Notes: generated by a model from the sequence alone, not told the origin. Numbered from the stretch's first letter, positions 2,993 through 57,812 are shown. The stretch is 64,000 nt of DNA from Candidatus Anstonellales archaeon (GCA_038869735.1 JAWCQO010000005.1:7538-71537); one strand, 5' to 3'. Translations and numbers: made by a program.

Positions 2993-4731
2993 TAGAGATA
3001 TTTTCCTTTTAATATTGATATTATTTCACTTAAGATGGCAGAATCCGAACGAGGTAGAATATCCTTCACCTTCAAGAGCTTATTCTGGGCTTCGTCATTG
3101 AGGTGCGTATAGAGAATATCGCCTTCTCTGATTTCCTTCCCAACTTCAGTTCCATCAACAGATATTGCAACTTGCTCTCCTGCCTCTGCAGAATTCACGT
3201 CTTGTCTATCCTTTTCGATGCCCCCAACTTCGCCAATCCGTCTTCCTGCACTATCCATAAGGACTGCTCGCCTCACAAGCTTTCCTCCGAGTACTTCGAT
3301 ACCGAATATCGCTGGACTACTTTTTCTAAATATATATCCTGGAAGTATTTTCAGCTTTGCAGGATAAATGGCCTCTTGGAGAATTCTTTGGCGCTCCTTT
3401 TGTTTTACTTTTTCAACCCATTTTTTATAATTTTCAACAAGAGAATAAATCACATTGTCCAACATAATTTCAACCCCGGACCCGTCGCTCTCGTCCTTGA
3501 CCCCAAAACCTAAAACAACACCAAGAAGTGGGTCGTAAAATGCTGATGCTTTTGCAAGCATTGCGTCTTTTTTTGTAATGTTGCCAACGCCTGCCTTTTT
3601 TACGGCAATTCCTTCATTTGAGATTATTTTTAAGAGCGCCTCGAGGGAGCCAAGAGTGTCTGCTTTGACTACTATTCCGGCAGAGTCATTCTCGAAAAGT
3701 ATCCTTTTCACTTGGGATGAAATTCTCTCTTGTGCAATTTCTTGCTCTTCTGGAGTATTTGCAACGACAAGAGGAGAACCAGGAATTGCGTCTTCAAGTC
3801 CACTTGCAAATATTTTTATTCCACAGGCTGCTCTAACCTCATTTGGGTATTCATATTTTTCGGCTTGGTTTGTGTGTTGGCTTTTTGGCTTGATTATTGC
3901 CCTCACGCTTGTCTTTGCGCAACCTTGAGTTGTTCCAAATAGAATCGTGTCGTTTTTGCGTAAAATGCCTCTGTAGAGAATAACGTCGATTGTTGTTCCC
4001 AACCCACGTTCCTCTCCGACTTCTAGGATGCTTCCTTCGCCCTTTTCTTCATTACCAATAGAGAGCTCACGCTCCAAGAACTTCTGTGAAAGCCCTGAAA
4101 GAAGGAGAAGTAACTCTAAGATTCCTTCCTCAGTCTTTGAGGATATAGGCACTATTACGACTGTTTTTGTAAAATCGGTGACTCTATCAAAGCGCTCGGA
4201 ATTTATCCCAAACTCAGATATCTGACTGATTATTTTATAAAGCTTCTCATCTAGTTGGGCGATTGTTCGGTCAGTTTGTTCTCGAAGACTATCTGCGATA
4301 CATCTTCCAGCGCGAGGTATCCAGCCATTTAATGTATCCACCTTGGTTGCTGCAACTAAAAAAGGTGTTTTGTATTGTGAGAGTATTTTTATGCTTTCAA
4401 TGGTTTGTGGTTGCACGCCTTCGTTTATATCAACAACAAGTATGGCAATATCCGCAATGCTTCCCCCTCTTTCCCTCAGGTTGGTGAATGCTTCATGGCC
4501 AGGAGTGTCTATAAATAGAAGACCTGGGATTTTGATTTCTATATTCATCCTTTCTAAAGCAGGCCCGCAAATATCTTTTATTGTGGTTATTGAGACCTCG
4601 CTTGCGCCAATATGTTGTGTGATTGCTCCGGCTTCCTTTTTTTGGATGGAAGTCCTTCTTATTGAGTCGAGTAAGCTTGTTTTTCCATGGTCAACATGAC
4701 CAAGAACGCAAACGATTGGTTGTCTTAACAT
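2992..4731 (-). CDS. infB: Translation initiation factor aIF-2 / eIF5B
   Basis: G1 motif VLGHVDHGKTSLLD, G3 DTPGHEAF, NKVD-type G4; the 579-aa length fits archaeal aIF5B. Confidence 0.9.
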   Translation of the reverse strand: MLRQPIVCVLGHVDHGKTSLLDSIRRTSIQKKEAGAITQHIGASEVSITTIKDICGPALERMNIEIKIPGLLFIDTPGHEAFTNLRERGGSIADIAILVVDINEGVQPQTIESIKILSQYKTPFLVAATKVDTLNGWIPRAGRCIADSLREQTDRTIAQLDEKLYKIISQISEFGINSERFDRVTDFTKTVVIVPISSKTEEGILELLLLLSGLSQKFLERELSIGNEEKGEGSILEVGEERGLGTTIDVILYRGILRKNDTILFGTTQGCAKTSVRAIIKPKSQHTNQAEKYEYPNEVRAACGIKIFASGLEDAIPGSPLVVANTPEEQEIAQERISSQVKRILFENDSAGIVVKADTLGSLEALLKIISNEGIAVKKAGVGNITKKDAMLAKASAFYDPLLGVVLGFGVKDESDGSGVEIMLDNVIYSLVENYKKWVEKVKQKERQRILQEAIYPAKLKILPGYIFRKSSPAIFGIEVLGGKLVRRAVLMDSAGRRIGEVGGIEKDRQDVNSAEAGEQVAISVDGTEVGKEIREGDILYTHLNDEAQNKLLKVKDILPRSDSAILSEIISILKGKYL

Positions 4732-8097: not shown

Positions 8098-9624
8098 TTA
8101 CAGGGTTACTCTTCCTTCTTTTATGTTTCGGATTATGGTGCTGTAGACTTCTCCAACTTTTATGCGCTCCTGCTTACCATCGTTTCTGTAACGTATAGTC
8201 ACTGTATCGTCTTTGAGAGTGTCATAATCTATTGTAAGACAATAGGGGATGCCTATCTCATCTGCTCGAGCATATCTACGTCCTATTGAACCGCTCTCAG
8301 TATATATAACGTCCAATCCTTCTGCTCTTAAATTTCCAAGAAGGTCAAGTGCTTTCTCACTAAGGCCGTCTCTCCTCATAAGCGGATAAACTGCGCATGA
8401 GTAAGGAGCAATGACTGGGGGAAAATCAAACCACGCCCAATCTTTTTTGTTTCCTTTTTCTCTGAAGGTGTGTTCGAGTATGCACCAGAATAATCTGTCA
8501 AGCCCCATTGAAGGTTCAACTACATGTGGGATTATCTTCCGTTCGTTTTCCTTTCCTTCTTTTGCTTCGTTTGGATTGTTGTGGTTTACATAAACGCGAA
8601 GATCAACTCCGCTTTTTGAAGAATGAGACGATAGGTCGAAGTCGGTCCGATAGGCATTGCCAATAGTTTCTATGACTCCAAAAGAGGTTTCGATTTCCAG
8701 ATCAAAATTCCCGGCTGAATAATGGGGTGTGTCCTTTTTTCCCATTTTCTTAAAATAAAATTTCTCGTACGGAATGCCAAGAGATGTATAAAATTGCGTT
8801 TGCCTGACCATAAAATATGCCATTATCTCGTTCGGGATTATTCCTTTTCTTACAGCTTCGGCTGCCGACATCTTTTGGATTCTGTCGCTTCCGGCAACCA
8901 TTATTCTTATCTGTTCAGTCTCGACTTGAGAAAATTTCTCTATTGTTGGGCTTCGCGGGTCAAAAAAGTACTCAAGTTCCATCTGTGTAAATTCCCTGAG
9001 GCGCAAGATACCCTTGCGGGGAGAGATTTCGTTTCTGAAACTTTTTCCTATCTGACCGACACAGATTGGAAGCTTTGTTCCATGGTTCCTGAAAATTCTT
9101 GAGAAGTCCAGGAATATTCCCTGGGCGGTTTCTGGTCTGAAGTATCCTGTATTTCCTTCCACTGGACCTATGTTCGTCTTGAACATCAAGTTAAACCAAC
9201 CCTTGCTTTCAAACTCCCCTCCGCAGGCTGGACAGGCGATTCCTTCCTTCTTTAGCAGAGGTAATAGCTCTTCGGGTGAATTCCAGCCTGACGCTTCGAG
9301 CTTCTTTTGATCGAGGAACTCGTCGGCTTTGAATTCGGATGAACAGGCCTTGCATCTGATTAGAGGATCAACAAAATTCTTTGCGTGCCCTGAGGCTTCA
9401 AGCACAACTGAAGGCAATACTGTAGAAGTTTCTATCTCAAAAAAACCCTCGCTTTTTATGAAAAATTTTCTGAAATAGTCCTCTATCTTCTTTTTCATCA
9501 GGCAACCTACAGGTCCGTAGTCATAAAAACCACTGATTGATCCGTAGATTTCGAATGAGGGAATCAAAAAAGAACGTTGGAGCGCTATTTCCATTAGCCG
9601 TTCATACAATTTCTGGTGCTTCAT
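8098..9624 (-). CDS. glyS: Glycyl-tRNA synthetase (archaeal/eukaryotic type)
   Basis: N-terminal FEIYGSISGFYDYGPVGCLMKKKIEDYF; class II motifs; C-terminal anticodon-binding domain. Confidence 0.9.
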   Translation of the reverse strand: MKHQKLYERLMEIALQRSFLIPSFEIYGSISGFYDYGPVGCLMKKKIEDYFRKFFIKSEGFFEIETSTVLPSVVLEASGHAKNFVDPLIRCKACSSEFKADEFLDQKKLEASGWNSPEELLPLLKKEGIACPACGGEFESKGWFNLMFKTNIGPVEGNTGYFRPETAQGIFLDFSRIFRNHGTKLPICVGQIGKSFRNEISPRKGILRLREFTQMELEYFFDPRSPTIEKFSQVETEQIRIMVAGSDRIQKMSAAEAVRKGIIPNEIMAYFMVRQTQFYTSLGIPYEKFYFKKMGKKDTPHYSAGNFDLEIETSFGVIETIGNAYRTDFDLSSHSSKSGVDLRVYVNHNNPNEAKEGKENERKIIPHVVEPSMGLDRLFWCILEHTFREKGNKKDWAWFDFPPVIAPYSCAVYPLMRRDGLSEKALDLLGNLRAEGLDVIYTESGSIGRRYARADEIGIPYCLTIDYDTLKDDTVTIRYRNDGKQERIKVGEVYSTIIRNIKEGRVTL

Positions 9625-9686: not shown

Positions 9687-10478
9687 ATGATTGAAAGAGA
9701 GAAATACCTAGAAATGGCACGCATGTCTATGAAGGAGAAGATTTCTTCCCCTGATCTCCTTATTTCCCAAACCGTTGCAACTATAAGCGAACTTGACAGA
9801 TGCATAAATGTTTTGTATGAGAAATTGGCTGAATGGTACGGACTGTATTTTCCAGAGTTAAAGCTGTCAGATATGCGCACATACTGCCAGGTAGTCATTA
9901 AGTTTGACAGAAAAAAGCAAAACGTCGCTTCTATTCTATCTGTTGTTGGTGAGAAGAACGCAGAAGTAGTAGTCTCTAAAGCCAAGACCTCTGCCGGTGC
10001 AGATTTCTCTGATGATGATTTGGAAGAAGTGCGCAAGCTTGCAAGGCACGTTCTTGAGCTTTATGAGTTGCGTGATGAGATTGAAAAGTATCAGGCTTCT
10101 CTTGCAAGGAAATTCTATCCAAACTTATCTTACTTGCTTGAGCCGGCTCTTGCCGCGAAGATGGTATCTCTTGCAGGCTCACTTAGGAAGCTTGCTCTTC
10201 TTCCTGCAAGTACGATTCAGGTTATGGGTGCAACAAAAGCTTTATTTAAGCATCTAAAAACTGGTTCAAAACCACCAAAGCACGGGGTCATCTTTCAGCA
10301 TCCTTCAATATCAGGAGCGCCAAGAAAGCTTCGCGGAAAAATCGCGCGCGCCCTTGCATCAAAGATAGCCATAGCCGCAAGGGCGGATGCATTCACTGGA
10401 GCGCAAATAGGGAAAAAATTAAAGGAGGAGTTTGAAAGGCGAGTTGGTGAGATAAGAGGAGGGAGCAGACGAGAATGA
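9687..10478 (+). CDS. nop5: Nop5 (Nop56/58-like) box C/D snoRNP protein, short form with coiled-coil and Nop domain
   Basis: LAEWYGLYFPEL and the Nop domain MGATKALFKHL..PKHGVIFQHPSI..APRKLRGKIARALASKIAIAARADAF. Confidence 0.75.
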   Translation: MIEREKYLEMARMSMKEKISSPDLLISQTVATISELDRCINVLYEKLAEWYGLYFPELKLSDMRTYCQVVIKFDRKKQNVASILSVVGEKNAEVVVSKAKTSAGADFSDDDLEEVRKLARHVLELYELRDEIEKYQASLARKFYPNLSYLLEPALAAKMVSLAGSLRKLALLPASTIQVMGATKALFKHLKTGSKPPKHGVIFQHPSISGAPRKLRGKIARALASKIAIAARADAFTGAQIGKKLKEEFERRVGEIRGGSRRE

Positions 10479-10702
10479 AATTCCTTGCACTTTCTGATCT
10501 TCATGCAAGCGAAGAGGCGCTTGATCGCCTTGGTGAGATAAGAGGAGGGAGCAGACGAGAATGAAATTCCTTGCACTTTCTGATCTTCATGCAAGCGAAG
10601 AGGCGCTTGATCGCCTTGGTGAGATAAGAGGAGGGAGCAGACGAGAATGAAATTCCTTGCACTTTCTGATCTTCATGCAAGCGAAGAGGCGCTTGATCGC
10701 CT
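10446..10702 (+). repeat. Perfect tandem triplication of an 86-bp unit spanning the nop5 stop and the downstream gene start
   Basis: The unit ggtgagataagaggagggagcagacgagaatgaaattccttgcactttctgatcttcatgcaagcgaagaggcgcttgatcgcctt recurs at 10446, 10532 and 10618. The third copy diverges after nt 85. Confidence 0.9.
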
Positions 10703-11285
10703 CCGCGTAATAATGATGAGAGAAAACGACTATGACTGGATATTCATAGTTGGCGATATTACCACTAATGGCCCTGTTAGCTACGCCGAAGACCTTCTTG
10801 ATATACTGCGAGAAAAAGGGCTTTTTGTACATGGAAATATGGATCCGTTTCCTGTTCAAAAGTTGATCGAGCAGAAAGGTGCATCAGTTCATGGAAAAAA
10901 AATAAATATCGGCGAATGGAACGTTGTTGGGTTGGGCGGCTCGAATCCTACTCCCTTTGGGACTCCTTGTGAATATTCTGAGGAGGCAATAGAAAAGTGT
11001 ATATCTGATTCTAATATGGATGAATATTCTATATTTCTATCTCATCCGCCTCCATTTGGGCTCTTTGACACTGTTGGTGTCGGAGTTCATGTGGGAAGCG
11101 TATCTGTTCGCAAAGCCATAGAAGACAAGAAGCCTATTCTCTGCATATGTGGGCATATACACGAGCATCAGGGAAAAGTTCTTCACAAGGAAACGACGGT
11201 AGTAAAGCTTGGAAGCGGAGAGAAACTAAATGCGGCTGAGATAACAATCAAAGATGAAATTAAAGTCAGTTTTATAAAGATTTAA
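10647..11285 (+). CDS. Calcineurin-like metallophosphoesterase
   Basis: LALSDLH, IFIVGDITTNG, VHGNMD, GHIHE motif set. Confidence 0.75.
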   Translation: MKFLALSDLHASEEALDRLRVIMMRENDYDWIFIVGDITTNGPVSYAEDLLDILREKGLFVHGNMDPFPVQKLIEQKGASVHGKKINIGEWNVVGLGGSNPTPFGTPCEYSEEAIEKCISDSNMDEYSIFLSHPPPFGLFDTVGVGVHVGSVSVRKAIEDKKPILCICGHIHEHQGKVLHKETTVVKLGSGEKLNAAEITIKDEIKVSFIKI

Positions 11286-11693
11286 ATGGGGAGAATACGG
11301 ATTTTTCGGGTTTTGGATGAAGAAGACTTCTGCGATATCTATCCAGTTGTTAAGGCTATTTTTCCTAGCAGCCAAATACGGTTTTCAGACAAGGACGTCT
11401 ATTTCTATGCAAGAGTTAAAAAAGAGGTTGTCGGGTTTTCGCATGTCTTTGATAAGGGCGGTGGCACTTATGTGCTACAGGGGATAGGGGTTCTTCCAAA
11501 ATTCCGCAACAGAGGGATAGGAGGCAAGTTGGCAGATAAAGCCATAAAATTTTGTGAACAGAAAGGAGCACTGCGTATATTGCTAAGAGTAAGATGCACA
11601 AACCCTGCTGTGCTACTCTATTTAAAAAAAGGTTTTTATCTAAAAAAAGAGTCATTCGGTTCATATACGCTTGAAAGACGAAAACCCTCATAA
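11286..11693 (+). CDS. GNAT family N-acetyltransferase
   Basis: Acetyl-CoA motif A: GIGVLPKFRNRGIGGKLADKAI. Confidence 0.7.
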   Translation: MGRIRIFRVLDEEDFCDIYPVVKAIFPSSQIRFSDKDVYFYARVKKEVVGFSHVFDKGGGTYVLQGIGVLPKFRNRGIGGKLADKAIKFCEQKGALRILLRVRCTNPAVLLYLKKGFYLKKESFGSYTLERRKPS

Positions 11694-11736: not shown

Positions 11737-11809
11737 GGGGCTGTGTGCTAACTTGGTATGCTTCCAGGTTTGGGACCTGGCGGTCTGAGTTCAAATCTCA
11801 GCAGCCCCA
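11737..11809 (+). tRNA. tRNA-Pro (anticodon UGG), intronless. The D-stem is irregular.
   Basis: Acceptor GGGGCUG/CAGCCCC, anticodon arm CCAGG-UUUGGGA-CCUGG, T-arm CUGAG-UUCAAAU-CUCAG. No CCA is encoded. Confidence 0.55.
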
Positions 11810-13424: not shown

Positions 13425-16400
13425 GGGTAAGCAATCGCATTTTTGACGCTAAGGGCGGCGGATGAAGAATGCGAGCGCGTCGTGCGGTTGCGCGAGCGCT
13501 TTATGAGGATGAAGGGAAAACCGTAAGATTCACAAGAGAGTATGGATATGATATGCTGCTTTAGGCTTGGCAGGGGATAGCTTGGCTTGGGCAATATATC
13601 CGCCGTGGCAAGCAGCGAAATGCCCGTGGTAGGCGCAGGCTGCCTGTAATCACGGGGTTGCGGATTTACGCGGGGAATTAAAACATTCTAGTACCCGCAG
13701 GAAAAGAAAAAAATTTGATTTGGCTAGTAAGGGCGACTGAACGCCAAACAGGGCGACCCGAATAGTCCGTCGCGAGGCGGAAAAGATGTGGGACCGCAAA
13801 ATCTCTCTCTGTGGAGAAGAAACCTCTGGAAAGTGGTGCCATAGAGGGTGAAAGCCCCGTATTCGAACCGGAGAGAGACGAGGTAAAAAGAGTAGTGTCC
13901 ATTGGTGATTGGGCACAAATATGGCAGAATCAACTGCCAACCCTAAATATACCCCAAGACCGATAGCGTACAAGTAGCGCGAGCGAAAGCTGAAAAGGAC
14001 CCCGGGAGGGGTGTGAAAAGAGCTTGAAACTGTCAAGCCACAGTTTGATGCGGCCAAAAAGCGGTTTATGTCCTTCAAAGCAACTGCTGGAGACGGCAGA
14101 AGCGAGAAGGAAGTAGCATGGTTGCATCGTCCTTCTATAAGCAAGGGCCAGGGAGTTTTCCTCAACGGCGAGGCGAAAGCCGGAGCGAAAGCGAGTACTA
14201 ACGTGCGACAAGTCGTTGGGGAAAGACCCGAAGCCGATGTGAGCTATACGTGGGCAGGGCGAAGCCGGCCTGACGGCTGGTGAAGGCCCGCAACCAGTAC
14301 TAGTATATTCTGTTTGGGTGACCTGCGTATAGGGGTGATAGTCCAGTCGAACTCGGCAATAGCGGGCTCCTCCTGAAGTATATCTCAGTATAGCGGCGCC
14401 GGAGCATGTCATACAGGGTAGAGCACTGATTAGGAGGAATGGGCCCGAGAGGGCTCGCCTTCTTGTCAAACTCCGAATCTGTATGAAGCGTAGATGGTGC
14501 TAGTAGGCTTCTCTCGGGTAAGCCGAGAGGACTGTACGGGAACAACCGTTACCGCGGTTAAGGCCCCCAAATCTTGGCTAAGTGCAACTTAAAAGAGTCT
14601 CTGCTCAAAAACAGCTGGGAGGTAGGCTTAGAAGCAGCCATCCTTCAAACAACGCGTAATAGCGGACCAGCCGAGAGCGCAGATTCTGAAAATGCTCGGG
14701 GCTATAAGCCAAGTGCCGATACCGCGGAGTGGCGCATTATGTAGATGCGCGCAATCTGGTAAGGAGGCGAACCGGTTGGGCAGAAGCGCGGGCGTAAGCT
14801 CGCGTGGACCGGCTGGTTATGATAATCCTGGTATTAGTAGCAGCATATCCAGGTGAGAATCCTGGACGCCGGAAGCACGCGGGTTCCTTGGCGATGCTCG
14901 TCAGCCAAGGGTAAGGCGATCCTAAGCGTCGCGCTAATCGCAAAGACGCGAAAGGGAAACCGGTTAAGATTCCGGTTCCAGACGGATAGGTGCGGTAACG
15001 CGAGGGTGTCTTTCTGACGCTTTGGGGTAGGCTCAGTGGAGGAGACTCCATTTAAGCAGGATAGTTCTCTGGAGTCTAGTTGTTAGGAGAAGGAGAACAA
15101 ACTGCGAAGGCCACACGGTTGAGCTGACCCCTGGAGCCCGTGAAAAGGAAAGACACAGCGATTCCGTCTGCTCGTACCTAGAACCAGTACAGGTGGTGCT
15201 GGCAGAAAAAGCCAAGGCGTGGCAGGAGAACTCTCGTAAGGGAACTTGGCAAATTAGTGGCGTAACTTCGGGATAAGCCATGCCTGCGGTTCTCTAAAAA
15301 GGAACTGCAGGTCTCAGTGACAAGGGGAGACCGACTGTTTACCAAAAACACAGGTCATCGCTGAGCCGAAAGGCTGAGTACAATGGCCGATGCCTGCTCA
15401 CTACTGGTACGTCAAACTCCGGTCCAACGGAGCGAAGCGCCAGCAAAGAGCGGGGGTAACTCTGACCCTCTTAAGGTAGCGTAATACCTCGCCGCTTAAT
15501 TGGTGGCTTGCATGAAGGGCATAACGAGTCTCCCACTGTCCCTACGAGGGACCTGGTGAACTTACTACTCTGTGAATATGCAGAGGACTTCCAGGGGGAA
15601 ACGAAGACCCCGTGGAGCTTTACTATAGCCTGTTGTTGGAATGCGGTGATGGTCGCGGAGCGTAAATGGGAGCCGTTAAGCCGTACCTTTTGGGGTGCGG
15701 ATAGGCGCCGTTGTAACACCATTCGGCTGTTATTGCATTTCTTACCGGAAGGGACAGCGACAGGTGGATAGTTTGGCTGGGGCGGTACATCCTCGATAAG
15801 GAAACAAGGATGCCCAATGTTCGGCTTAGGTGCGTCAGAAATGCACCGTTAAGGGACAAGGACAAATGCCGGACTGACTGTATCCCTAAAAGCATCGGAT
15901 GCAGAGGCGAAAGCCGGGCCTAACGAACCTTGGTATCCCTTTTGATGAGGGTCCAAGCTGTCAGACAAGCTACCCCGGGGGTAACAGGCTCGTCGCGGGC
16001 GAGAGACGCCTATCTTTAAGTTTTTAAAAAAGAAGGTAGGTGCTCAAATACCCATCGACCCCGCGGTTTGGTACATCGCTGTCGGCCTAGGTCATCCTGG
16101 CGGTGCAGGAGCCGCCAATGGTTGGGTTGTTCATCCATTAAAGACCTACACGAGCTGGGTTCAGAACGTCGCGAGACAGTTCGGTAGTATCTCCTGGGAG
16201 TGCAAATCCGCCTGAGAGGAAGAACCCTTAAGTACGAGAGGAACTTGGGTTCGAAGCCTCTGGTGTACCGGTTGTGAAAAGCAGATGCCGGGCAGCTACG
16301 CTTTATGGGATAAGACCTGAAAGCATCTAAGGTCGAAGCTCATCTCAAAACGAGGCGGTTTGGCGGTCGTAGCAGACGACTTTGATAGGAGGGAGGTGTA

Positions 16401-16460
16401 AGAGCCAAGCGCAAGCGAGGCTTTCAGCCTGCCCCTTACTAAAAGCCAGATGTATATCAT
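13425..16460 (+). rRNA. 23S: 23S (large-subunit) rRNA; ends approximate to +/-50 nt
   Basis: 5'-domain matches include ggcggatgaagaatgcgagcg, gggaattaaaacattctagtacccgcaggaaaagaaa and ctggaaagtggtgccatagagggtgaaagccccgta. The peptidyl-transferase region has ctgggttcagaacgtcgcgagacagttcggt. The sarcin-ricin loop agtacgagaggaac is at about 16223. Confidence 0.85.
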
Positions 16461-16685
16461 ATCCATTCCCTCTTCTGGAGCTTGCGGTTTTCTCAAAATC
16501 CTTAAAAACACTTTTTTCTGAAGTTCTGGTGCTTGAATGTGTTTAGACTGGCTCTTTCTTGCGCTATCTAACTTCTAATCTTTGCTTTCTATAGTTGTTG
16601 CTGCCTATAGGGTAATAATATTGCCACAATATTGAAAACGAAGGATATAGGCTTCCTTGCGCTATCTGCCTCTAATCTTTGCTAT

Positions 16686-23037: not shown

Positions 23038-24317
23038 TGCGACAACCTCACAAGGGTCGATATGTCTATTTGAGAGCCAAACATTGCTGCAAGCCACTGG
23101 ATAAACAGAAGCGTTATTGTTAGGTTCAGCGCAGTCGCAAATATGGAGCGCAGATATACTTGAAAGATGAGTGGTTCAAAGTTGTAAATGCTTTTGTTAT
23201 CGCCTATTTCTGTTTGGCCGATTAATGGTTCGATGAATTTTTCGCGTGTGCTTGCGTAGGAAAAATCAAATGGGTCGCATGTTTGAGTGCGAATCGTATT
23301 TGCAAGATTAGAATTTTGGTTGCTTCTGTAAGCTTGCAAGTACTCATTAGAGTCTAAAATTTCTCCAAAAAGAATTTTTTCTGAAAAAAGGAAAGTAAGC
23401 GGCAGGACAAGGTATAGCCCAGCTGCAAATGCTATTAACGTTCCACCTACTTTTCGCGTGAAGTTGAAAGTGCGAAGGAAGATTCCTATAGGAAGCAGGA
23501 TAGAGAAAGCATAATTCTTTGCAAAGCTCATGATAAGGAAAATTGCCTGAAAATCTGTAACAGCAAGAGACAATGATGTTGTCGCATGGGTGATGGAAGG
23601 GCGCATTGCATTTATGGCGGAACATGTGATTATTGAATACCCAACACCTAATATTGAGCAATAGCCGGATTTTGAGCCTTCTTGTCCCGATTTCTTTGAA
23701 ATTTCAAGATAGTTTGAGAGTAGGTCTTCGTAATTGCTCTTTACATCTTCAAGGGTTGCAAACGCGTAGTCATAAAATGTCCCCTCTACTTCTGCCCCAC
23801 CAGCTAAAGACTTAAATGCTGGGAGGAGAGAGGCGTCTAGATAATAAGCCATGCTAGTAAGAGAAGCTAGAATCAGTGCTGTAAAGATAAGTTGGGTCAG
23901 CTCATCTTTAGTATAGGTTTTTAGTTCAGTTATATTGAAGACGGAGCTACCCATATAAAGTAGCGATATTAATGAAGCGGAGATAAGAAAAGCTATGAGT
24001 ACTAGAGGAAGCCATTGTGACTGGCAACGGCAGTTAGAGCATGAGGCAGTTAAAGGACATCCGCCTCTTAGTTCTACTGCAGAAACTTCGCACTCCTCGC
24101 CTTGGTCAAGAACTCCGTTTCCACAGATTGGAAGCTGAACGTTGACGTTTTCTGCAATACATTCGCCGTTTTGGCAGATATAACCTTCTTGACATGGAGG
24201 GGAGCAGAGTGCAGCGTTTCCTCCTTCTCCAGCGGAGAAAAGAACAGCTGAGGCTAGGATAATGAAAAAGAGCTCAAGTATCAACGCCTTTTGTTGCTTC
24301 ATTTTGCTCCACATCAC
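23034..24317 (-). CDS. Paralog P4 (427 aa). It has a signal peptide, a small Cys-rich N-terminal ectodomain with one CGNGVLDQGEEC repeat, and the 5-TM core.
   Basis: ICGNGVLDQGEECEV. Core FLRTFNFTRKVGGTLIAFAAGLYLVLP. Tail AAMFGSQIDISTLVRLSQ. Confidence 0.7.
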   Translation of the reverse strand: MMWSKMKQQKALILELFFIILASAVLFSAGEGGNAALCSPPCQEGYICQNGECIAENVNVQLPICGNGVLDQGEECEVSAVELRGGCPLTASCSNCRCQSQWLPLVLIAFLISASLISLLYMGSSVFNITELKTYTKDELTQLIFTALILASLTSMAYYLDASLLPAFKSLAGGAEVEGTFYDYAFATLEDVKSNYEDLLSNYLEISKKSGQEGSKSGYCSILGVGYSIITCSAINAMRPSITHATTSLSLAVTDFQAIFLIMSFAKNYAFSILLPIGIFLRTFNFTRKVGGTLIAFAAGLYLVLPLTFLFSEKILFGEILDSNEYLQAYRSNQNSNLANTIRTQTCDPFDFSYASTREKFIEPLIGQTEIGDNKSIYNFEPLIFQVYLRSIFATALNLTITLLFIQWLAAMFGSQIDISTLVRLSQ

Positions 24318-26614
24318 AAAAATCTTGATATTCCCGGAAGTTCTATATCTCCTCCGAATGTTTGGGAAAAAACTCTAATGAATGCTATCAAGACAACTAT
24401 ATTAAAGAGTGGAAGAACGTAAGCAGGAATTGCAAGCACACCTACATTTTTTGTGTCACTCATGGTTGTTTTTGCTCCTGTCTGGCTGGATATAAAGCCT
24501 GCAGGGGTAAAATCGCGTGAAGCGGCGGTTGGGAGATTGCAAACTTCTGCACAATTTGTCCGTATTGGGGGTATTGTGGTGCAGTCATCATCACATTTGA
24601 GGCACGAAGTGCAAAGTGATGGCGGTGAGTCTGTTGTGAAATTGCTTTTGCATTCCTTGTTGCAATATGGTTCAAGGCAACTTGCGGGACAGTTTATGTC
24701 TCCAGCGTCTGCAACTCTGCACCTTTTTGGGCATGCAGAACATGTTCCGTCGGGTTGTGGTTGTATTGAGCCGTAGTTTTGACGAGTTGGAAAGTTTGCA
24801 CAGTTTTGAGAGGGAGAGGGGATCTGAATTCCACAATAAGCTCGACAGGCAACACAGGAAGGGTTGGTCCTACAATGTAATTGGAAGTAGTTGTCAGCGT
24901 CCTCATTGTCTTGGATGTTGGCGATGCGGCATTCGCGCTGGCAGCTTCCGCAAAGGGTAAGGCAGTCAAGTAGTTTTGGGTCTGGAATCCCTATCCTGCA
25001 GTTTGGTTCGTTTTCGCTTCTTCCCATTGGGCAATGTTCTTCTGTACATTCCTCGCATGCTTTCCAGACAGATTCTCCGTTTTCCTGCACTGGAAAGTCT
25101 GATGGCTTTGGAATTCTCCAATAGCCATCGACGGGGTCGTTTGGGTCATCATCTGACTTATCATCCGGATAAAGTGGATTGAAGTAATAAACACGACAAA
25201 AGTCTGGGCATAGTGTGCACTTGCCTTGGCATTCTGGCGACATATAACTGACTGAATTTATTATTGCACATCCAGATATATAGCAGCCATCTTGAGAATC
25301 TTCTATTCTATTTGCTCTGGAGCAAGTATTTTCACCAAATAACTGTTTGATTTCCTCCGGGGGGTCGGGTTTTTCGTCATCAGAAAAACATGTTGTCCTC
25401 TCGCGATAAGGGACATATGCTTGGTTGTCTGAATTCAGCTTACTTTTTCCTCCAACCTTACACTCGTCCGGGCAAGTGGAGCAAACGGCCCGTACATCAA
25501 CGTCCTTAACTATTTGACCTGCGTGTTCAGAGTCTTCTGCTATGAGATCTGATTTGGTGCAAGAAGGATTTTGGATAGGATAGGGAATTTCTCTACATAT
25601 GGAGGGACATGAGAGGATTACGGTTTGGCCAGTTATAGTCTCACCTTCTTGATTTACAACCATTTGATTTGTCAGTTGTCTCTTGCAACTTCCAAGCTCT
25701 TCGCAAGTGTTTATTTTCGGTGGGTTGAAAGTGCATTCTCCAGGACAATAATCTGGAGGTGGGGAGACCATCTGGTCTCCAAACACTGCAACTTTTAGAG
25801 TAAACCAAGAAAAGACGTAGAGCATTGGCCAGACTAAAAGCAGGGATATTCCGATTGCAAGTAAAAGCCCTCCTAATCTGCGCGAAAAGAAAAATGTGCG
25901 GAGGATAACTCCATAAAAAATGAGCACAGATGAAAGAGATGCTGACTGCGGGTTATTTGTTGAAGCCAGATTGGATAGAAAGCTTTTTTGGGTGGCAAGC
26001 GAAGAGTATATCCCTGAGAGAACATCGAAGTTGTATGAATATCTTTCTGTGTACATGGAATAGCCGGCATTTTTTCCTGAATAATAAGCGGCCCAGAGTG
26101 TGTAGTACGTGTTGGTAGACACTCCTTCTCGCTCAGAGGATTTTTTTGCATTTTCAAACGCATCTATGAGATTTGATTTTAGCGTTGAGTTTGTAATTGA
26201 AAGAAGCGAATCTAAGTAGCACAAACCAAGCGAGATTACATACGGCTGATTCTGGATGGGTTGGCAGGCAAATTGGCCTGCTGTTATTGATAGTAGAAAC
26301 GAAGAAAGGAACGAGAAAATAGCGATAAGAGAGATTATTATCAGAGCTGAAGCAAAGACTTGTGAGAGTTCTGTATTTGCCCAGACTTTTATTTCTGGGA
26401 TGTTTAGCCCTATCCCAACAATATATGCAATAGAAACGATGGATAAGGAGATGGCCAGCGCGATTATTGATGCCGATTGCCAATTTCCATTTCCAAGAAA
26501 TTGATTATATGTAAGATCTATGGGGGATAGCTGTAGGAGTGGCTGTGGGTACGAGAAAGTAGAGAATAGCAAAAGAACGAGGAGGATCTGCGTCTTTTTT
26601 AATTTTGTATTCAT
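24314..26614 (-). CDS. Paralog P3 (766 aa). The 5-TM core carries an about 420-aa Cys-rich ectodomain inserted between TM4 and TM5 rather than at the N-terminus.
   Basis: Core VILRTFFFSRRLGGLLLAIGISLLLVWP is followed by a long Cys-rich region. Final TM and tail: FIRVFSQTFGGDIELPGISRFL. Confidence 0.7.
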   Translation of the reverse strand: MNTKLKKTQILLVLLLFSTFSYPQPLLQLSPIDLTYNQFLGNGNWQSASIIALAISLSIVSIAYIVGIGLNIPEIKVWANTELSQVFASALIIISLIAIFSFLSSFLLSITAGQFACQPIQNQPYVISLGLCYLDSLLSITNSTLKSNLIDAFENAKKSSEREGVSTNTYYTLWAAYYSGKNAGYSMYTERYSYNFDVLSGIYSSLATQKSFLSNLASTNNPQSASLSSVLIFYGVILRTFFFSRRLGGLLLAIGISLLLVWPMLYVFSWFTLKVAVFGDQMVSPPPDYCPGECTFNPPKINTCEELGSCKRQLTNQMVVNQEGETITGQTVILSCPSICREIPYPIQNPSCTKSDLIAEDSEHAGQIVKDVDVRAVCSTCPDECKVGGKSKLNSDNQAYVPYRERTTCFSDDEKPDPPEEIKQLFGENTCSRANRIEDSQDGCYISGCAIINSVSYMSPECQGKCTLCPDFCRVYYFNPLYPDDKSDDDPNDPVDGYWRIPKPSDFPVQENGESVWKACEECTEEHCPMGRSENEPNCRIGIPDPKLLDCLTLCGSCQRECRIANIQDNEDADNYFQLHCRTNPSCVACRAYCGIQIPSPSQNCANFPTRQNYGSIQPQPDGTCSACPKRCRVADAGDINCPASCLEPYCNKECKSNFTTDSPPSLCTSCLKCDDDCTTIPPIRTNCAEVCNLPTAASRDFTPAGFISSQTGAKTTMSDTKNVGVLAIPAYVLPLFNIVVLIAFIRVFSQTFGGDIELPGISRFL

Positions 26615-29119
26615 TTACATCCCTATTTCAGAAACCTTACGGATTGCGGATGCAAACCCATGCACTGAGGTTATTATTATAATTATCGCGAGATTCGGAA
26701 GAAAAACGGCTTGTGGGAGAAGCAAGGCGAGCGTTTTAAAGGAAACGTGTGGGTCTGCAGCAATATAAAATGAATCAAGAACTTGGCTTGTTAGAGGATA
26801 TGTGTTTGCGAAGAGGGTATAGATTGCTGGAAATATTAAGTAAAGTGAAAAGCAGAGTGCCATAAGATAGTTTCCTGCGGTCCTGGTTGGTGGAAGGACT
26901 CTTAGAAAAATTGCAAAGGATAGGAAGAGTACTATTATTGGTTGGTTTTCTTGAGGGGTGGAAATGAAAAGAAGCCTAAATAGTTCTAACTGGAGTTTTA
27001 TGCTGACTATCATTGGTATGAGCAGGTCTATCATCACTTCCTGGGATTGTGAATACGCTCTCCTGATTGCGTCTTTTGATTCTCCTTTGCCACCTTTAAA
27101 TGGAATGCCAACAAAGAGATAGTTTGTTGCTTTGAGTTGATTAGTAAGACTACCTTCAGTTAGACGTTGAACTTCTGCCGTTCCGATTCTTTGAAGAGAG
27201 TCAAGGTATTTTGTTGAGTAAACGTACATCGTTGTACCTTCCGGGACATTTAAAAATGAGCCTATGACGGCGTTTGAGTTTTCAAGAAAGTTTGTTGCTA
27301 GAATCAAAACGGCAAAAATAGCTGACCAACCAAGATGCACTGCTTCGTCTCTTAGCAATATGTCAAGATGTACATTGCCTCCGAAATATTTTGAGTACAT
27401 AAATGCAAGGGCTATGAGCAGGACGATTAAAAAAAATGCAGAGTGCACCAGTGCAGCGATGTTGCCTGAGCTAGGGCAGTCCTGTTGACAATAGACAGGT
27501 TCTGCTCCTTCACATCTGCCGTTTCCACATTCAAATGATGTTTGGATGCACCTGCAAGAATAGGGGTCGCAACTAAACTTTTCACTACAGTTGTTTTCTA
27601 TTCCAGGATCGCACTCTTCGCCTTGGTCAAGAACTCCGTTTCCACAAAGCATTTGAGGAGGCTGTTTAGTTATTAAAACCTCCTTGCTTTCTTGCGCTGA
27701 GATTATGCTATCTGAATAGATAATCGACGCTTTAAACACCAGTGTTTTTCCTTCTGAGCAGGACTCATAGAGTGGGCATACTATTGACCTTGTTAGTTGT
27801 TGGTCTGCCTGTACTTGTGTAGAGCCACTTAACAGCACTTCGGATGAAGATTCTGAACGGATTACCCACTCCCACTCAAGACTTTGGGGGCTAACACCTT
27901 CTGGAGACGGAATGGTGATCCGTAATGATGGTGATTGTGACTCTGTGGCGGGGTTTGGCGTAATGTCAGAAAGAATTGGAGGGGGATGTTCTGGCACTAA
28001 TTCATCTATAGTAGCTTCGTCAAATGTTTCATTGGAGGTGTAGCGTTCTCCTTGGCCATAAGAAAGAGTTGCATAAAACCTAAGAGTTGAACGATCAGGG
28101 CAACCGTTATCCAGATTGAAGCAGTAGTAGGTTTGATATGAGTAATTTGTTGTTCCTCTTCTGTAGGCCTGTGTTCCTTGATGAATGGTTACACTCATTC
28201 CGTCCGGTTGCGTTAATTCGAAGCGCCAGTTTATAGTGTTGGGCTCAATGATGTTTTCAGGTATTGTGACGATTCCGTTAAAAACGTCTCGGGGATTCGC
28301 ACGTTTTGGTTTAATTGAAACTGATGGTGGGAGGATAGGTTCATAGTATGCATCGTCAGATTGAGAGTAATCAGTGCAAGCATAAACAGAGCATGCCCTT
28401 ACACGAACATGAACGTTTCTTGGTGATGAGGCTGAGCACCCTGGATAGTCTGAGCATCTAAAAGACATTGCTGATTGGCCCTCCATCCATGGAGTTTCAA
28501 AGTCTGGTCCGTCTCCAAGATAGGCAACCCACTTAAATTGATAGATAAAGTTACTTGCGTCTCCCTGTCCGGCAGTGACAAGTTGACATGAGGAGCGGCC
28601 GGATATTTGGTTGCAATAATTTCTATTTGCGACAGTGGCTGAATCTATTCCTGAAGTGTATCCTCTGCATCGAATGTTCCACGGAGGTCCACTTTCGCCT
28701 TCAAGCCCTTCATCTGGGACACAAGAGTTTGAGTTTACATCCCAGTGACAACCGGCGGGTTGCTCTTGAAGAAAATAAGGAGCGTTATAATCGCTATATT
28801 GGGCACTCAAAGAATTACAATTATTTTGGTTTAGGATACTGCATCTTGCTTGTGAATTTTGAGCTCCCTGAGCAAGCTGGCATAATCTGCTGGCAAAATA
28901 ACTCCCTGCTCGGCAGCCTCCGCTCCAGTCATTGCTTATGCTAACTGTTGTTGAATACGAAGGAATTGAAATTAGTGTGAGCTCTGGTTTTTCTGGAATG
29001 CCGGACACAACATTACCGCCTGCACCCTCGTCATCATCACCGATTATGCAATTTTGTGACATAAGAAATTGAGCAGCAAATACTAGAAAGAGCAGGATGA
29101 AACTATAGGGGCTTTTCAT
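26615..29119 (-). CDS. Paralog P2 (834 aa). It has a signal peptide, an about 520-aa Cys-rich N-terminal ectodomain ending in CGNGVLDQGEECD, and the 5-TM core.
   Basis: LCGNGVLDQGEECDPGIENNC. Core AIFLRVLPPTRTAGNYLMALCFSLYLIFP. Tail SAIRKVSEIGM. Confidence 0.7.
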   Translation of the reverse strand: MKSPYSFILLFLVFAAQFLMSQNCIIGDDDEGAGGNVVSGIPEKPELTLISIPSYSTTVSISNDWSGGCRAGSYFASRLCQLAQGAQNSQARCSILNQNNCNSLSAQYSDYNAPYFLQEQPAGCHWDVNSNSCVPDEGLEGESGPPWNIRCRGYTSGIDSATVANRNYCNQISGRSSCQLVTAGQGDASNFIYQFKWVAYLGDGPDFETPWMEGQSAMSFRCSDYPGCSASSPRNVHVRVRACSVYACTDYSQSDDAYYEPILPPSVSIKPKRANPRDVFNGIVTIPENIIEPNTINWRFELTQPDGMSVTIHQGTQAYRRGTTNYSYQTYYCFNLDNGCPDRSTLRFYATLSYGQGERYTSNETFDEATIDELVPEHPPPILSDITPNPATESQSPSLRITIPSPEGVSPQSLEWEWVIRSESSSEVLLSGSTQVQADQQLTRSIVCPLYESCSEGKTLVFKASIIYSDSIISAQESKEVLITKQPPQMLCGNGVLDQGEECDPGIENNCSEKFSCDPYSCRCIQTSFECGNGRCEGAEPVYCQQDCPSSGNIAALVHSAFFLIVLLIALAFMYSKYFGGNVHLDILLRDEAVHLGWSAIFAVLILATNFLENSNAVIGSFLNVPEGTTMYVYSTKYLDSLQRIGTAEVQRLTEGSLTNQLKATNYLFVGIPFKGGKGESKDAIRRAYSQSQEVMIDLLIPMIVSIKLQLELFRLLFISTPQENQPIIVLFLSFAIFLRVLPPTRTAGNYLMALCFSLYLIFPAIYTLFANTYPLTSQVLDSFYIAADPHVSFKTLALLLPQAVFLPNLAIIIIITSVHGFASAIRKVSEIGM

Positions 29120-31162
29120 TTATATCAACCTATAAAGACCAATTATTCTGGTATCGCCTCCAAGAACTTCTGATGTGCCTTTGGTCATTACGACCGTTAT
29201 AAAAACTGTTAAGAGGATGGATATTAGCGCATTTGTGTAAAAGCCAGATATTAGATGTAGAACTGATTCAAGAGGGGAGTAATAGTCTGAAATGAGCTCT
29301 GATTGAGATATTGCTGCATAGTTATAGAGTGCTGGCCCAAATGGAAGCGGGAATCCCTGCACAATTGCAAGGTAAGTTAGCTTTACTATGTTCGCACATG
29401 AAAAGAAGCCGCCTGCAGTGGCAGGATTTGACAGAAGAATACTACATATGAGCCACTCATAGAAGTCTTCTCCGGGTAAAACGAACAGCGCAAATGTAGA
29501 TGAACACACTAAACTTTGTGCTGGTGGACTACCGGGATCAAAATCAGTTGCATTTTTTATTGAGTTTAGGTCTAAGTTTGTTTGTGTATAGGCCCATGAG
29601 GCAAAAACGATACTGGCAGGAAACCAAAGATATGCTCCAATACACACAGCAATAAGGGTAGTACCTACCCTTCTTGTTAATGGAAATGTTCTTAGGGCAA
29701 ACGCAGCTGGTAGAAGAAGTGTTGGGATTGTTGATGAGAAAAAGTAAAGAAGCATTTTTTGTATTGAAAAGGCATATATTATTTTTGATAAATTATCCAA
29801 AGCTTGGAGGATGCTTGAGGTTAGGATAGATAGTCCAGCTGATGGAGAACGGGATATAAATTTATTTGAGTAAAACGGAATAAGTGGAGTGCTTAATGAA
29901 TAAGAAAAACTTGAAATCTTTGAAATGTAAAAGTTTACTTCAGCCAGATAGTTTATTGAATTTCTCGAATTCTGGATAAAGTAATCAATGTGAGAAATCG
30001 CAGCTGAAGTCATATCTGGAGAACCCGTAATCGCACTTGCAAATGTCTCTATTCCAGCTATAGCAATAATGGTGGCAATTATTAATGCTGCACTTGCAAA
30101 AACCTCTCTAAATTCTGATTTTGACCAAACGTGGAGTTGGATTGAGTTGGTAAATTCTGCAAGCATATAGGCAATGGCTGAAATTACGACGGCTGCAAAA
30201 AGACCTATTAGGATTATTGGTGAAATAGCGATTTGGACTGCATTGCCAAATAGGCGCGGGGCTGAAACGCACTGGCAACTTTCACAAATAAAGGCGTCTG
30301 CACATTGGTTGGTGTATTCACACTGTTCGTTTTCTTCGTCAATTATTCCGTTTCCACAATAAGGTGGGTTTGCTCTAGCCACTTCATTTACTGACACACA
30401 AGAACAGGAGAAGCATCTCTGACCGACTTGGCAGTCTGCATCTGAATCGCACTCTTCGCCTTGGTCAAGAACTCCGTTTCCACAGCTGGATGTGAAAGTA
30501 TAGGGATTGAAATCTCTAATTGATTCACATGTGCAATTTTGAGAGCATGTGTAGCCTGGAGCACAATTGTTTGTGTTTATGTCGCATTCCTCTCCAGCAT
30601 CTAAAAATCCATCACCGCACTGTGGTCCAAAAGCTATCTGTTCGGCTGTTGGGCTGCATTGGTTATTTAGGCAGGAATATCCTGCTTTACAATCAGCATT
30701 TGTTAGGCATGATGTTTTGCATGTGCAAGATTGCGAGCAGACGTATGCGCCACAGTTGAGGTTTTGTTCTTTGTCGCATTCCTCTCCAGCATCTAAAAAT
30801 CCATCACCGCATACTGGAAGGGAAGATACGCACTGGCAACTTAGAGGATCGCAGAGTTGTCCGCTTTTGCAGATTATTTTAGAATCAGCCGGGTCACACT
30901 GTTCCCGTCCCGTAATTTTTCCGTCGCCGCATACTGAGTTATCCTGTACGCACTGGCATCCGGGGTTACAGTAAAAGCCGAATGGGCAATCGCTGTGAAT
31001 TTCGCATTGCTCTTGTGGTTGCTCGACTATTCCGTTTCCGCATATGTGAGCAGGGGGGCTACTTTGAGCAAAGAAAACTCCGCTTGAAAGGAGAAGAGTG
31101 AAAAATAGTATGGCGAATATGGAGCGCTTGTCAAAAATCACAAAGCCAAGCATCATAAACAC
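29120..31162 (-). CDS. Paralog P1 (680 aa), first gene of the operon. It has a signal peptide, six DUF4215-like Cys-rich repeats in the N-terminal ectodomain, and the 5-TM core.
   Basis: Repeats CGNGIVEQPQEQCE, CGDGKITGREQCD, CGDGFLDAGEECD x2, CGNGVLDQGEECD, CGNGIIDEENEQCE. Core FALRTFPLTRRVGTTLIAVCIGAYLWFP. Tail LGGDTRIIGLYRLI. Confidence 0.7.
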   Translation of the reverse strand: MFMMLGFVIFDKRSIFAILFFTLLLSSGVFFAQSSPPAHICGNGIVEQPQEQCEIHSDCPFGFYCNPGCQCVQDNSVCGDGKITGREQCDPADSKIICKSGQLCDPLSCQCVSSLPVCGDGFLDAGEECDKEQNLNCGAYVCSQSCTCKTSCLTNADCKAGYSCLNNQCSPTAEQIAFGPQCGDGFLDAGEECDINTNNCAPGYTCSQNCTCESIRDFNPYTFTSSCGNGVLDQGEECDSDADCQVGQRCFSCSCVSVNEVARANPPYCGNGIIDEENEQCEYTNQCADAFICESCQCVSAPRLFGNAVQIAISPIILIGLFAAVVISAIAYMLAEFTNSIQLHVWSKSEFREVFASAALIIATIIAIAGIETFASAITGSPDMTSAAISHIDYFIQNSRNSINYLAEVNFYISKISSFSYSLSTPLIPFYSNKFISRSPSAGLSILTSSILQALDNLSKIIYAFSIQKMLLYFFSSTIPTLLLPAAFALRTFPLTRRVGTTLIAVCIGAYLWFPASIVFASWAYTQTNLDLNSIKNATDFDPGSPPAQSLVCSSTFALFVLPGEDFYEWLICSILLSNPATAGGFFSCANIVKLTYLAIVQGFPLPFGPALYNYAAISQSELISDYYSPLESVLHLISGFYTNALISILLTVFITVVMTKGTSEVLGGDTRIIGLYRLI

Positions 31163-32188: not shown

Positions 32189-32770
32189 TTATTTTGAAGG
32201 TGGCTTTGAGGCATAGTTTTTTAATACTCTGGTAAGGTGTAACAATGTTTTTCTTACGTCATTTTCGGACTGACAGCCAGTGCAGATTATCTTGCCGTTT
32301 TTAAAAAGAAGGAGAGAGGATTTTGGATTTTTGAATTTTAGGATTGCGCCTGGGAATTGCTCGGGTTCGTATTCTACGTCCTCTACTTCCGCAGCTATTG
32401 AATAAAGGTCAAGGTAAACGCCAAGTGATGCTGAAGCAACGATATTTTCTATCTTGAATTTTGGTTTTGCGTGTGTTTGTGGAGTTGTTTTTGCGTATGG
32501 TTTTAAAAGGTTCATTGTTCTGTTGACTGTTGTTTGGACTTGGGATTCTGACTGACAGCCCGTGCAGATTATCTTGCCGTTTTTAAAAAGAAGGAGAGAG
32601 GATTTTGGTTCTTTTAGCTTCAGGATTGCGCCTGGGAATTGCTCGGGTTCGTATTCTACTCCAGGTATTTTAAATGCTATAGAATAGAGGTCAAGCTCTA
32701 TGTTGAGGTTTGCGCTTGCGACAATGTTTTCTATCTTGAATTTTGGTTTTGGTATTCTTATTCCACTCAT
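32189..32770 (-). CDS. tbp: TATA-box binding protein
   Basis: Two direct repeats KFKIENIVASA.L...LDLYSIA....VEYEPEQFPGAILK...SSLLLFKNGKIICTGCQSE. Confidence 0.85.
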   Translation of the reverse strand: MSGIRIPKPKFKIENIVASANLNIELDLYSIAFKIPGVEYEPEQFPGAILKLKEPKSSLLLFKNGKIICTGCQSESQVQTTVNRTMNLLKPYAKTTPQTHAKPKFKIENIVASASLGVYLDLYSIAAEVEDVEYEPEQFPGAILKFKNPKSSLLLFKNGKIICTGCQSENDVRKTLLHLTRVLKNYASKPPSK

Positions 32771-52390: not shown

Positions 52391-52424
52391 GATTTGAGAT
52401 AGGTTGTTTTAGTATAAAAAGAAG

Positions 52425-52514
52425 CGCTCCGACCGGGATTTGAACCCGGGTTACCGGCTTTCTTCACGAAAATTTGAAAGGCCGGCGTCCTTGACCGGGC
52501 TAGACTATCGGAGC
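52425..52514 (-). tRNA. tRNA-Glu (UUC) with a short (about 15 nt) canonical anticodon-loop intron
   Basis: RNA sequence GCUCCGA..GUCU-AGCCCGGUCAA-GGAC..CCGGC-CUUUCA[AUUUUCGUGAAGAAA]A-GCCGG..CCGGG-UUCAAAU-CCCGG-UCGGAGC-G. Confidence 0.7.
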
Positions 52515-56969: not shown

Positions 56970-57812
56970 CTTCCACTAATCAAATATACGTGGTTGGTTT
57001 TCTGTTCTCTATTTTAGTCAAATATTATTGATTGGTTCTTAATCAGATATGGTTGGTTCTCTAATTGTTTGGTTTGGTTGTTGTTTGTTAGTCTAGAAAT
57101 TCTGGGTTCTTTTTCTATTTTGTTTTTTGGTTGTAGTCTATTTATAAAGTAAACCTAAACTATTATTAATATTTTATGTAACTATAGTTACATTATGTTA
57201 TTATATTTCTACGATTTGAAAGCAAAAGATTTAAGACTATATAATAACATAAAACGCCGATTTTATTACGAACTATCAACATCAAAACTCACACAAGCCT
57301 TTTTTAGAACAAAATCCGTCTTAGTAGTTCCAGATGAATTAGAAACGTATGCAGATAATTTTTTTAAAAAATATTCAGAATATCTAGAAGTTTACAAAGC
57401 TCGAACACGCCTCATCCTTCAAATAAACTAACTCCGTATTCTCAACTACACATAACATATAAACAACAACATATAAACAACAAGCGCAGTTTCTAATAGA
57501 ATAAACAAAAACAGAAATCACAACCAAACCCAACCAAACACTCAACAAATATCCCAACTCGCCCATCTATTAAAGCTAACAAAAACTATACTCCTTCTTT
57601 AATTATTCCTTCTTTAATTATATTACCTTCTTAAATAAACAAAAAATTAATTATATTACCTTCTTAAATAAACAAAAAAAGCAAAACAATAAATTATAGT
57701 TCAAAGTACTTAGTTAAGTATTCGGCGAGACACTACTAGACACTAATTAATTGGTAGGTGTTAAACAACTAAGTAGGGTTAAAACAATTAGTGGAAGCGT
57801 CCCCCCACACTA

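Follow-up and report, generated by a model that had tools for sequence, protein, structure and literature searches.

Short tandem duplications are a well-known form of variation in prokaryotic genomes, where they expand into repeats and revert readily (preprint 10.64898/2026.02.28.708716). Their units are perfect, head-to-tail and 10-500 bp long, their copy number differs between close genomes, archaea included, and microhomology is absent in 25-30 % of the intraspecies variable duplications (preprint 10.64898/2026.02.28.708716). Another described system that resembles the present locus is the pair of overlapping genes coupled by termination-reinitiation. In Haloferax and E. coli this coupling needs a -4 or -1 overlap and is nearly abolished by a spacer of ~20 nt, and of the upstream gene only a short stretch at the 3' end is required (Huber et al. 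2019, PMC6728339; Huber et al. 2023, PMC10666635). In archaea and bacteria alike, the geometry met most often in coupled genes is the -4 overlap ATGA (PMC6728339, PMC10666635). The array described here lies at the boundary between a nop5-like gene and a metallophosphoesterase (MPE) gene in the 64-kb stretch of DNA that we analysed (the window). It is a member of the short tandem duplication or VNTR-like class and nothing categorically new, and it very probably represents a genuine and recent tandem amplification of an 86-bp segment in a hot-spring population of Anstonellales (Micrarchaeota, DPANN).

Tandem Repeats Finder reports a perfect array at positions 10444-10702 of the window (period 86, 3.0 copies, 100 % matches, 0 indels, score 518), and three in-register copies starting at 10444, 10530 and 10616 were recovered by a repeat search of the window. 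The copies stand head-to-tail without a spacer, and a perfect unit of 86 bp falls within the size range of prokaryotic VNTRs and short tandem duplications given above. The periodic stretch measures 259 nt (3 x 86 + 1) and begins at the TT of the nop5 codon GTT; it spans the last 10 nop5 codons and the stop, the ATGA overlap and the first 19 MPE codons. On the plus strand, copy 1 (10444..10529, 86 bp) holds the nop5 tail, the overlap and the first 18 1/3 MPE codons, copy 2 (10530..10615, 86 bp) has the same sequence, and copy 3 (10616..10702) consists of 86 bp plus the shared T at 10702 and holds the functional MPE start. One unit joins the next at CGCC/TTGG (CGCC/TTGGTGAG), and the array is flanked by cgag/TTGG on the left and CGCC/Tccgcg on the right, so that the shared microhomology amounts to 1 nt (T, 10702). 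Direct reading agrees with both searches, and the perfect 86-bp triplication across the nop5 stop and the phosphoesterase start that the first-pass annotation had reported is thereby borne out; of the span it gave, 10446-10702, the end is correct and the start is 2 nt late, the true start being 10444. No other tandem array in the window comes near this one in strength, the runner-up among the perfect tandems being a duplication of 33 bp x 2. By our own estimate from base composition, with a match probability of ~0.255 per base, 173 consecutive matches at one lag would arise by chance with a probability of ~1e-103, or ~1e-95 after multiplication by ~3e7 position-lag combinations.

Both genes that meet in the array are whole, Nop5 terminating in copy 1 and the phosphoesterase initiating in copy 3. 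The nop5-like gene (9687..10478, plus strand) encodes a protein of 263 aa with a Nop domain only (Pfam PF01798, E=1.8e-60) that ends in GEIRGGSRRE, the last 10 codons and the TGA stop sitting in repeat copy 1. For a Nop5 this is short, the Nop domain at residues 33-253 being the only one. The MPE gene (10647..11285, plus strand) encodes an intact calcineurin-like protein of 212 aa (Pfam Metallophos, E=2e-16), and full-length homologues of 209-213 aa are found throughout Micrarchaeota. A gene for a GNAT acetyltransferase (11286..11693, plus strand) starts right after the MPE stop and is the third gene of a nop5-MPE-GNAT cluster; a tRNA-Pro gene follows just downstream of it, at 11737-11809.

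Two chimeric ORFs of 29 codons each lie on the plus strand between the end of nop5 and the true MPE start. The ATG of the first (10475..10564) overlaps the nop5 stop and its stop overlaps the next ATG, while the second (10561..10650), which is the same as the first, has a stop that overlaps the true MPE start. According to the ORF listing both encode MKFLALSDLHASEEALDRLGEIRGGSRRE, in which residues 1-19 of MPE run on in frame into residues 254-263 of Nop5, and the two 29-aa decoy ORFs previously claimed ahead of the real start at 10647 are thus present as described. Their MPE part contains only the first metal-binding D-x-H motif, and they should not be annotated as genes. The ATGA stop/start overlaps fall at 10475-10478, 10561-10564 and 10647-10650, each of the geometry used in termination-reinitiation. 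A putative Shine-Dalgarno-like GGAGG was read on the plus strand 12 nt upstream of each ATG (10458..10462, 10544-10548 and 10630-10634). A weak TATA-like GATAAG was also seen, by eye only, ~20 nt upstream of each ATG. Since the duplicated piece contains a stop together with a start, the end of nop5 and the start of MPE are both preserved, which would explain why the duplication is tolerated. In this respect the locus departs from other prokaryotic VNTRs: its unit spans a gene boundary, so that no gene is disrupted, and only 2-3 copies have been seen.

A single-copy ancestral sequence is supported by a sister species and three other Micrarchaeota. In the sister species (MPE 77 % identical, five contigs) nop5 is followed by MPE after a 27-nt spacer and there is no repeat, and the three more distant Micrarchaeota (L004, L005 and L006) share the order GlyRS(-)/nop5/MPE with a single start and no tandem repeat. 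Across the relatives the nop5-MPE spacers measure 9-44 nt, with a single junction in each case. GNAT follows MPE in L004, L005 and the sister species, and the L006 contig ends just past MPE. In the DNA alignment the left flank and copy 1 are colinear with the 3' end of nop5 in the relatives, and copy 3 and the right flank are colinear with the 5' end of their MPE; this colinearity at both array ends shows that the array is no more than an in-place amplification of a segment that was once single-copy. The complete identity of the copies suggests that the duplication is recent, and the recent duplication proposed by the first-pass annotation is upheld by this identity, by the single-copy state of the relatives and by a copy number that differs between assemblies.

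The neighbour of nop5 is MPE (followed by GNAT where the contig extends), not fibrillarin, and the nop5-MPE order is kept in four Micrarchaeota relatives; a fibrillarin gene is the expected neighbour of nop5 in archaea. In L005, Nop5 gains a Gly/Arg-rich (GAR-like) N-terminal extension, in frame, when the longest upstream ORF is taken.

Five MAGs at NCBI, all named Candidatus Anstonellales archaeon (Micrarchaeota, DPANN), encode identical Nop5 and phosphoesterase proteins, and among the matches listed the nearest other Nop5 proteins come from Micrarchaeota MAGs at 45-59 % identity. The JAWCPP, JAWCSB and JAWCMN accession series derives from the survey of Qi et al. 2024, in which 152 metagenomes from hot springs at Tengchong were sequenced on Illumina HiSeq 4000; SPAdes --meta was run sample by sample (k = 21, 33, 55, 77, 99, 127), and every bin was then reassembled with SPAdes --careful at these k values (PMC11094006). 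The array is present with 2.0 copies of the 86-bp unit in JAWCPP010000002.1 (97 kb), JAWCSB010000010.1 (30.5 kb) and JAWCMN010000001.1 (149 kb), and the junction CGCC/TTGG is common to these three contigs and the window, that is, to four SPAdes assemblies. In their flanks the sister contigs match the window at an identity of 99.8 % or more, and outside the array JAWCPP differs from it by one synonymous SNP in ~7 kb (8278 A/G, in GlyRS). Since the array is found in sister assemblies too, the repeat is not peculiar to one assembly, though its copy number is. A comparison with related bins, which had been proposed at the outset, therefore recovers the array in three sister contigs, and a single copy in this population, the state that would speak against the triplication, was looked for in the contigs and found in none of them.

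Among the four assemblies compared, out of the five MAGs, only the window has three copies and the other three have one unit fewer; which unit of the window counts as the extra one is an arbitrary choice. The copy number thus differs between near-identical genomes (3.0 vs 2.0) at the level of the assemblies, a 2-copy contig being a lower bound. Such variation between close genomes is also a property of prokaryotic VNTRs (preprint 10.64898/2026.02.28.708716), and other loci vary here as well. Two contigs show further peculiarities: JAWCSB010000010.1 ends at its position 4075 (window 10847), 145 nt downstream of the array and inside the phosphoesterase gene, at a distance from the array that fits no simple k-1 offset, and upstream of the 23S gene the JAWCMN contig carries a small indel, near window 13391. 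The JGI metagenome contigs contained no match to an exact 27-mer taken from the unit.

A witness closer to the reads is provided by Logan contigs, for which each SRA run was assembled independently at k=31. The Logan contig of SRR27730037 ends at window 10473, and those of SRR27730036 and SRR27730035 start at window 10673. Exactly these two positions emerge as breaks from a k=31 de Bruijn simulation of flank + n units + flank with n = 2, 3 and 4, whereas n = 1 gives no branch and a continuous contig. The first 31-mer of the right-hand Logan contigs ends exactly on the first base that separates the exit from the next unit. Full-length Nop5 and MPE proteins have 0 Logan sources, and both neighbouring genes have them; as a positive control, Logan contigs of the sister species cross its single-copy junction unbroken. 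The coincidence of the Logan breaks with the simulated branch points places the unit-to-unit junction in the reads of at least three runs.

These observations bear directly on the idea that the genome is single-copy and that the repeat was invented by the assembly or by chimeric reads. The same junction would then have had to appear in four SPAdes assemblies of separate samples, and the exact k=31 breaks in three raw-read sets that passed through a different pipeline, when a single copy predicts no break at all; we consider the chance of this to be close to nil. The 86-bp repeat is real and no invention of the assembler. The assembly artefact that the first-pass annotation had offered as one option is accordingly rejected for the existence of the repeat, on the strength of the four assemblies and the Logan breaks in three runs, and survives only for the exact copy number. 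Independent support at the read and k-mer level also distinguishes this repeat from the usual mis-assembly of tandem repeats in de Bruijn graphs. More generally, sister assemblies and the exact break points of low-k (Logan) contigs make it possible to check a perfect tandem repeat in a short-read MAG even when the reads are not at hand.

The array is not the only duplication of its kind in this population. A perfect 33-bp x 2 duplication occupies 57614-57679 of the window, downstream of a TFIIE-alpha-like gene, and the same 33-bp sequence is single-copy in JAWCPP and in a 38-kb Logan contig of SRR27730037. Conversely, a 17-bp x 2 duplication (TAGACACTAATTAATTT) is present in JAWCPP and in the Logan contig of SRR27730037, and single in the window (~57736-57752). 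Logan contigs of SRR27730039, SRR27730035 and SRR27730043 stop at 57643, where the 33-bp junction is expected to break a k=31 assembly. Both duplications sit in AT-rich intergenic DNA at ~57.6-57.75 kb. Small perfect tandem duplications are therefore a recurrent and real polymorphism in this population, and they account for about half of the few differences between the assemblies (~13 kb compared), which suggests that an appreciable part of the variation between strains of this DPANN population consists of small non-microhomology tandem duplications. Given the polymorphisms at 33 bp and 17 bp, a genuine difference of two versus three copies at the 86-bp locus would be unsurprising. The SNP at 8278 and the 33-bp duplication occur in all four combinations: A with the duplication in the window, A with the single sequence in SRR27730037, G with the duplication in SRR27730039 and G with the single sequence in JAWCPP. 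This pattern points to strain recombination, to recurrent gain and loss of the duplication, or to a consensus drawn from mixed strains.

The number of copies is harder to settle than the presence of the repeat, as is usual for tandem repeats in de Bruijn graphs: the period of 86 is shorter than a read and the array is longer than one. In a simulation over the k values of the study, every array of at least two copies forms a loop at k <= 77, and with k = 99 and 127 the graph of a 2-copy genome is linear. The 3-copy path at k=127 needs 39 127-mers that are present only in molecules with at least three copies, and the occurrence of a 3-copy contig therefore suggests that such molecules were sequenced in the window's sample. 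This reasoning assumes that no such k-mers are made up by SPAdes out of the intermediate contigs of its lower-k rounds, as its pipeline should ensure.

It is nevertheless conceivable that exactly two copies exist everywhere and that the third copy of the window stems from an extra trip round a graph loop. The 2.0 copies in three of the four assemblies agree with this, as do the length of the array (172-258 nt), which is too long for a 150-nt read to bridge with unique anchors, and the loop that even two copies form at k <= 77. The final k is 127, however, and a 2-copy genome, loop-free at k=99 and 127, cannot supply the 39 k-mers; unlike in common cases of mis-assembly, k here exceeds the period, so that a 2-copy template cannot yield three copies. 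Moreover, a SNP and the alleles of two other tandem duplications, the latter backed by independent Logan break points, set the window genome apart from the 2-copy contigs, which argues for a genotype of its own and against a mere difference in how identical data were resolved. We therefore hold an excess third copy to be improbable.

The reverse error, in which three or more copies exist in all samples and the 2-copy contigs are collapsed without any real polymorphism, seems somewhat less improbable, though still unlikely. Tandem repeats are commonly collapsed by assemblers, and in a graph with at least three copies the paths spelling 2, 3 and 4 copies are all valid, every k-mer of the 2-copy path being present in it. 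As a 2-copy contig can be spelled from such a graph, the difference between two and three could partly reflect the way in which SPAdes traversed the loop. Against a general collapse stand the exact 2.0 copies in three independent assemblies, one of them a 149-kb contig, and the real presence/absence polymorphism that other tandem duplications show between the same samples. The deposited copy number of this locus, whether 2 or 3, is a lower bound only, and a true polymorphism in copy number between samples is the most likely explanation.

How the array arose can be sketched from its ends. An ancestral single-copy junction would have undergone one illegitimate duplication. The unit is not bordered by microhomology arms of 4 nt or more, the shared sequence being 1 nt only, and under the 4-nt working definition of preprint 10.64898/2026.02.28.708716 the locus is unlike microhomology-mediated duplications and falls in the minority 'non-microhomology' class. 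With this single nucleotide, slippage between direct repeats is doubtful as the source of the first duplication, which was probably produced by replication template switch or end joining. Once two 86-bp copies were in place, units may have been added and removed by slipped-strand mispairing or unequal homologous exchange, and a VNTR-like gain and loss of this type would have led to the at least two copies of every sample examined and the at least three of the window's sample. The slipped duplication proposed by the first-pass annotation hence seems apt for the later gain and loss of units and questionable for the initial event. A hairpin-driven origin was considered as well: a stem of 6-7 bp (AAGGCGA/TCGCCTT) brackets the unit, but the DNA fold has z=-0.97 versus shuffles and we treat the stem as a chance feature.

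The geometry of the junction invites comparison with termination-reinitiation pairs (PMC6728339, PMC10666635). Like them, nop5 and MPE are joined by a -4 overlap (ATGA), and each unit repeats this overlap along with the 3' region of the upstream gene that was found sufficient there. The difference is that three ATGA overlaps are chained here through two 29-codon ORFs made by the duplication. As each unit keeps GGAGG and ATGA, the coupling that starts from nop5 termination could be relayed ORF by ORF to MPE, and such a relay would spare the coupling the break expected from a 172-nt untranslated spacer. A neutral effect or a modest reduction would be the expected net outcome for expression, which fits the apparent fixation at two or more copies. 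Coupling at the nop5-MPE junction is itself not conserved, the sister species having a 27-nt spacer. The array is probably an ordinary, near-neutral duplication whose copy number probably varies.

A different view would hold that the tandem short ORFs are a functional arrangement kept by selection, as leader peptides, a contingency locus or a relay, with which the expression of the phosphoesterase (and of GNAT) would be tuned. The retention of an SD-like GGAGG and an ATGA overlap in each unit, the apparent fixation of at least two copies in all population samples seen and a seemingly variable copy number, as in contingency loci, all speak in its favour. Leader-peptide or uORF attenuators of the trpL type likewise have short ORFs immediately upstream of a structural gene. 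The arrangement is, however, absent from the sister species and from the three distant Micrarchaeota with the same operon, neither a decoy ORF nor a repeat being found in L004, L005, L006 or L089-L093. There is no Rfam match, and folding over the ORF gave no stable or alternative RNA structure better than shuffles (MFE z -0.17, +0.19 and +1.04 for RNA, -0.97 for DNA), so that no attenuator-like alternative structure emerges. The peptide simply joins the ends of two genes and shows no codon pattern of a regulatory kind, and the similar perfect duplications in the intergenic DNA of the same genome argue for mutational input, not design. The array thus differs from trpL-type attenuators in lacking conservation, alternative RNA hairpins and a regulatory codon run, its peptides being accidental chimeras. 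We judge a selected function to be very improbable, and the leader-peptide-like regulation suggested by the first-pass annotation finds no support in an element that is absent in relatives, belongs to no Rfam family, folds like its shuffles and varies in copy number. A C/D-box sRNA or other structured RNA within the unit was a further candidate, and was dismissed with Rfam scores of 13-17 bits against gathering thresholds of 48-52 (E 0.87-9.8).

One variant deserves mention for what it would imply. If the units acted as a 'relay ladder', their gain and loss by slippage would be a reversible and heritable dial on the ratio of nop5 to MPE/GNAT expression; ribosomes leaving nop5 would pass one or two 29-codon ORFs and be lost or recruited at each step. 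In that case the junction behind the gene for Nop5, a core C/D-box sRNP protein, would have turned into a contingency locus in an archaeon. We give this idea very little credence, on a par with that of a selected function in general. The reading of the array as a recent and near-neutral duplication makes it mildly interesting only, for its self-preserving stop/start architecture and because duplications of this kind seem to be prevalent in the DPANN population studied. Its biological importance is low, as it is one more recent tandem duplication that leaves both genes whole.

Several other features were found elsewhere in the window. The rRNA genes seem to be unlinked: a complete archaeal 23S rRNA gene lies at 13546-16462, and no 16S or 5S gene was detected in the 64 kb. 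On the minus strand at 52424-52514, ARAGORN predicts a tRNA of 91 nt with an apparent 4-base anticodon 'tcaa' (Rfam tRNA, 56 bits), which probably represents an archaeal tRNA with an intron rather than a suppressor of frameshifts. A 39-nt motif occurs six times within 24087-30811 (~6.7 kb), with two identical copies, one at 95 % and three at 62-64 %, and a 206-nt segment is repeated at 82 % identity, 282 nt apart, in 32264-32751. These 39-nt and 206-nt repeats are probably domain modules in large coding regions, not recent duplications.
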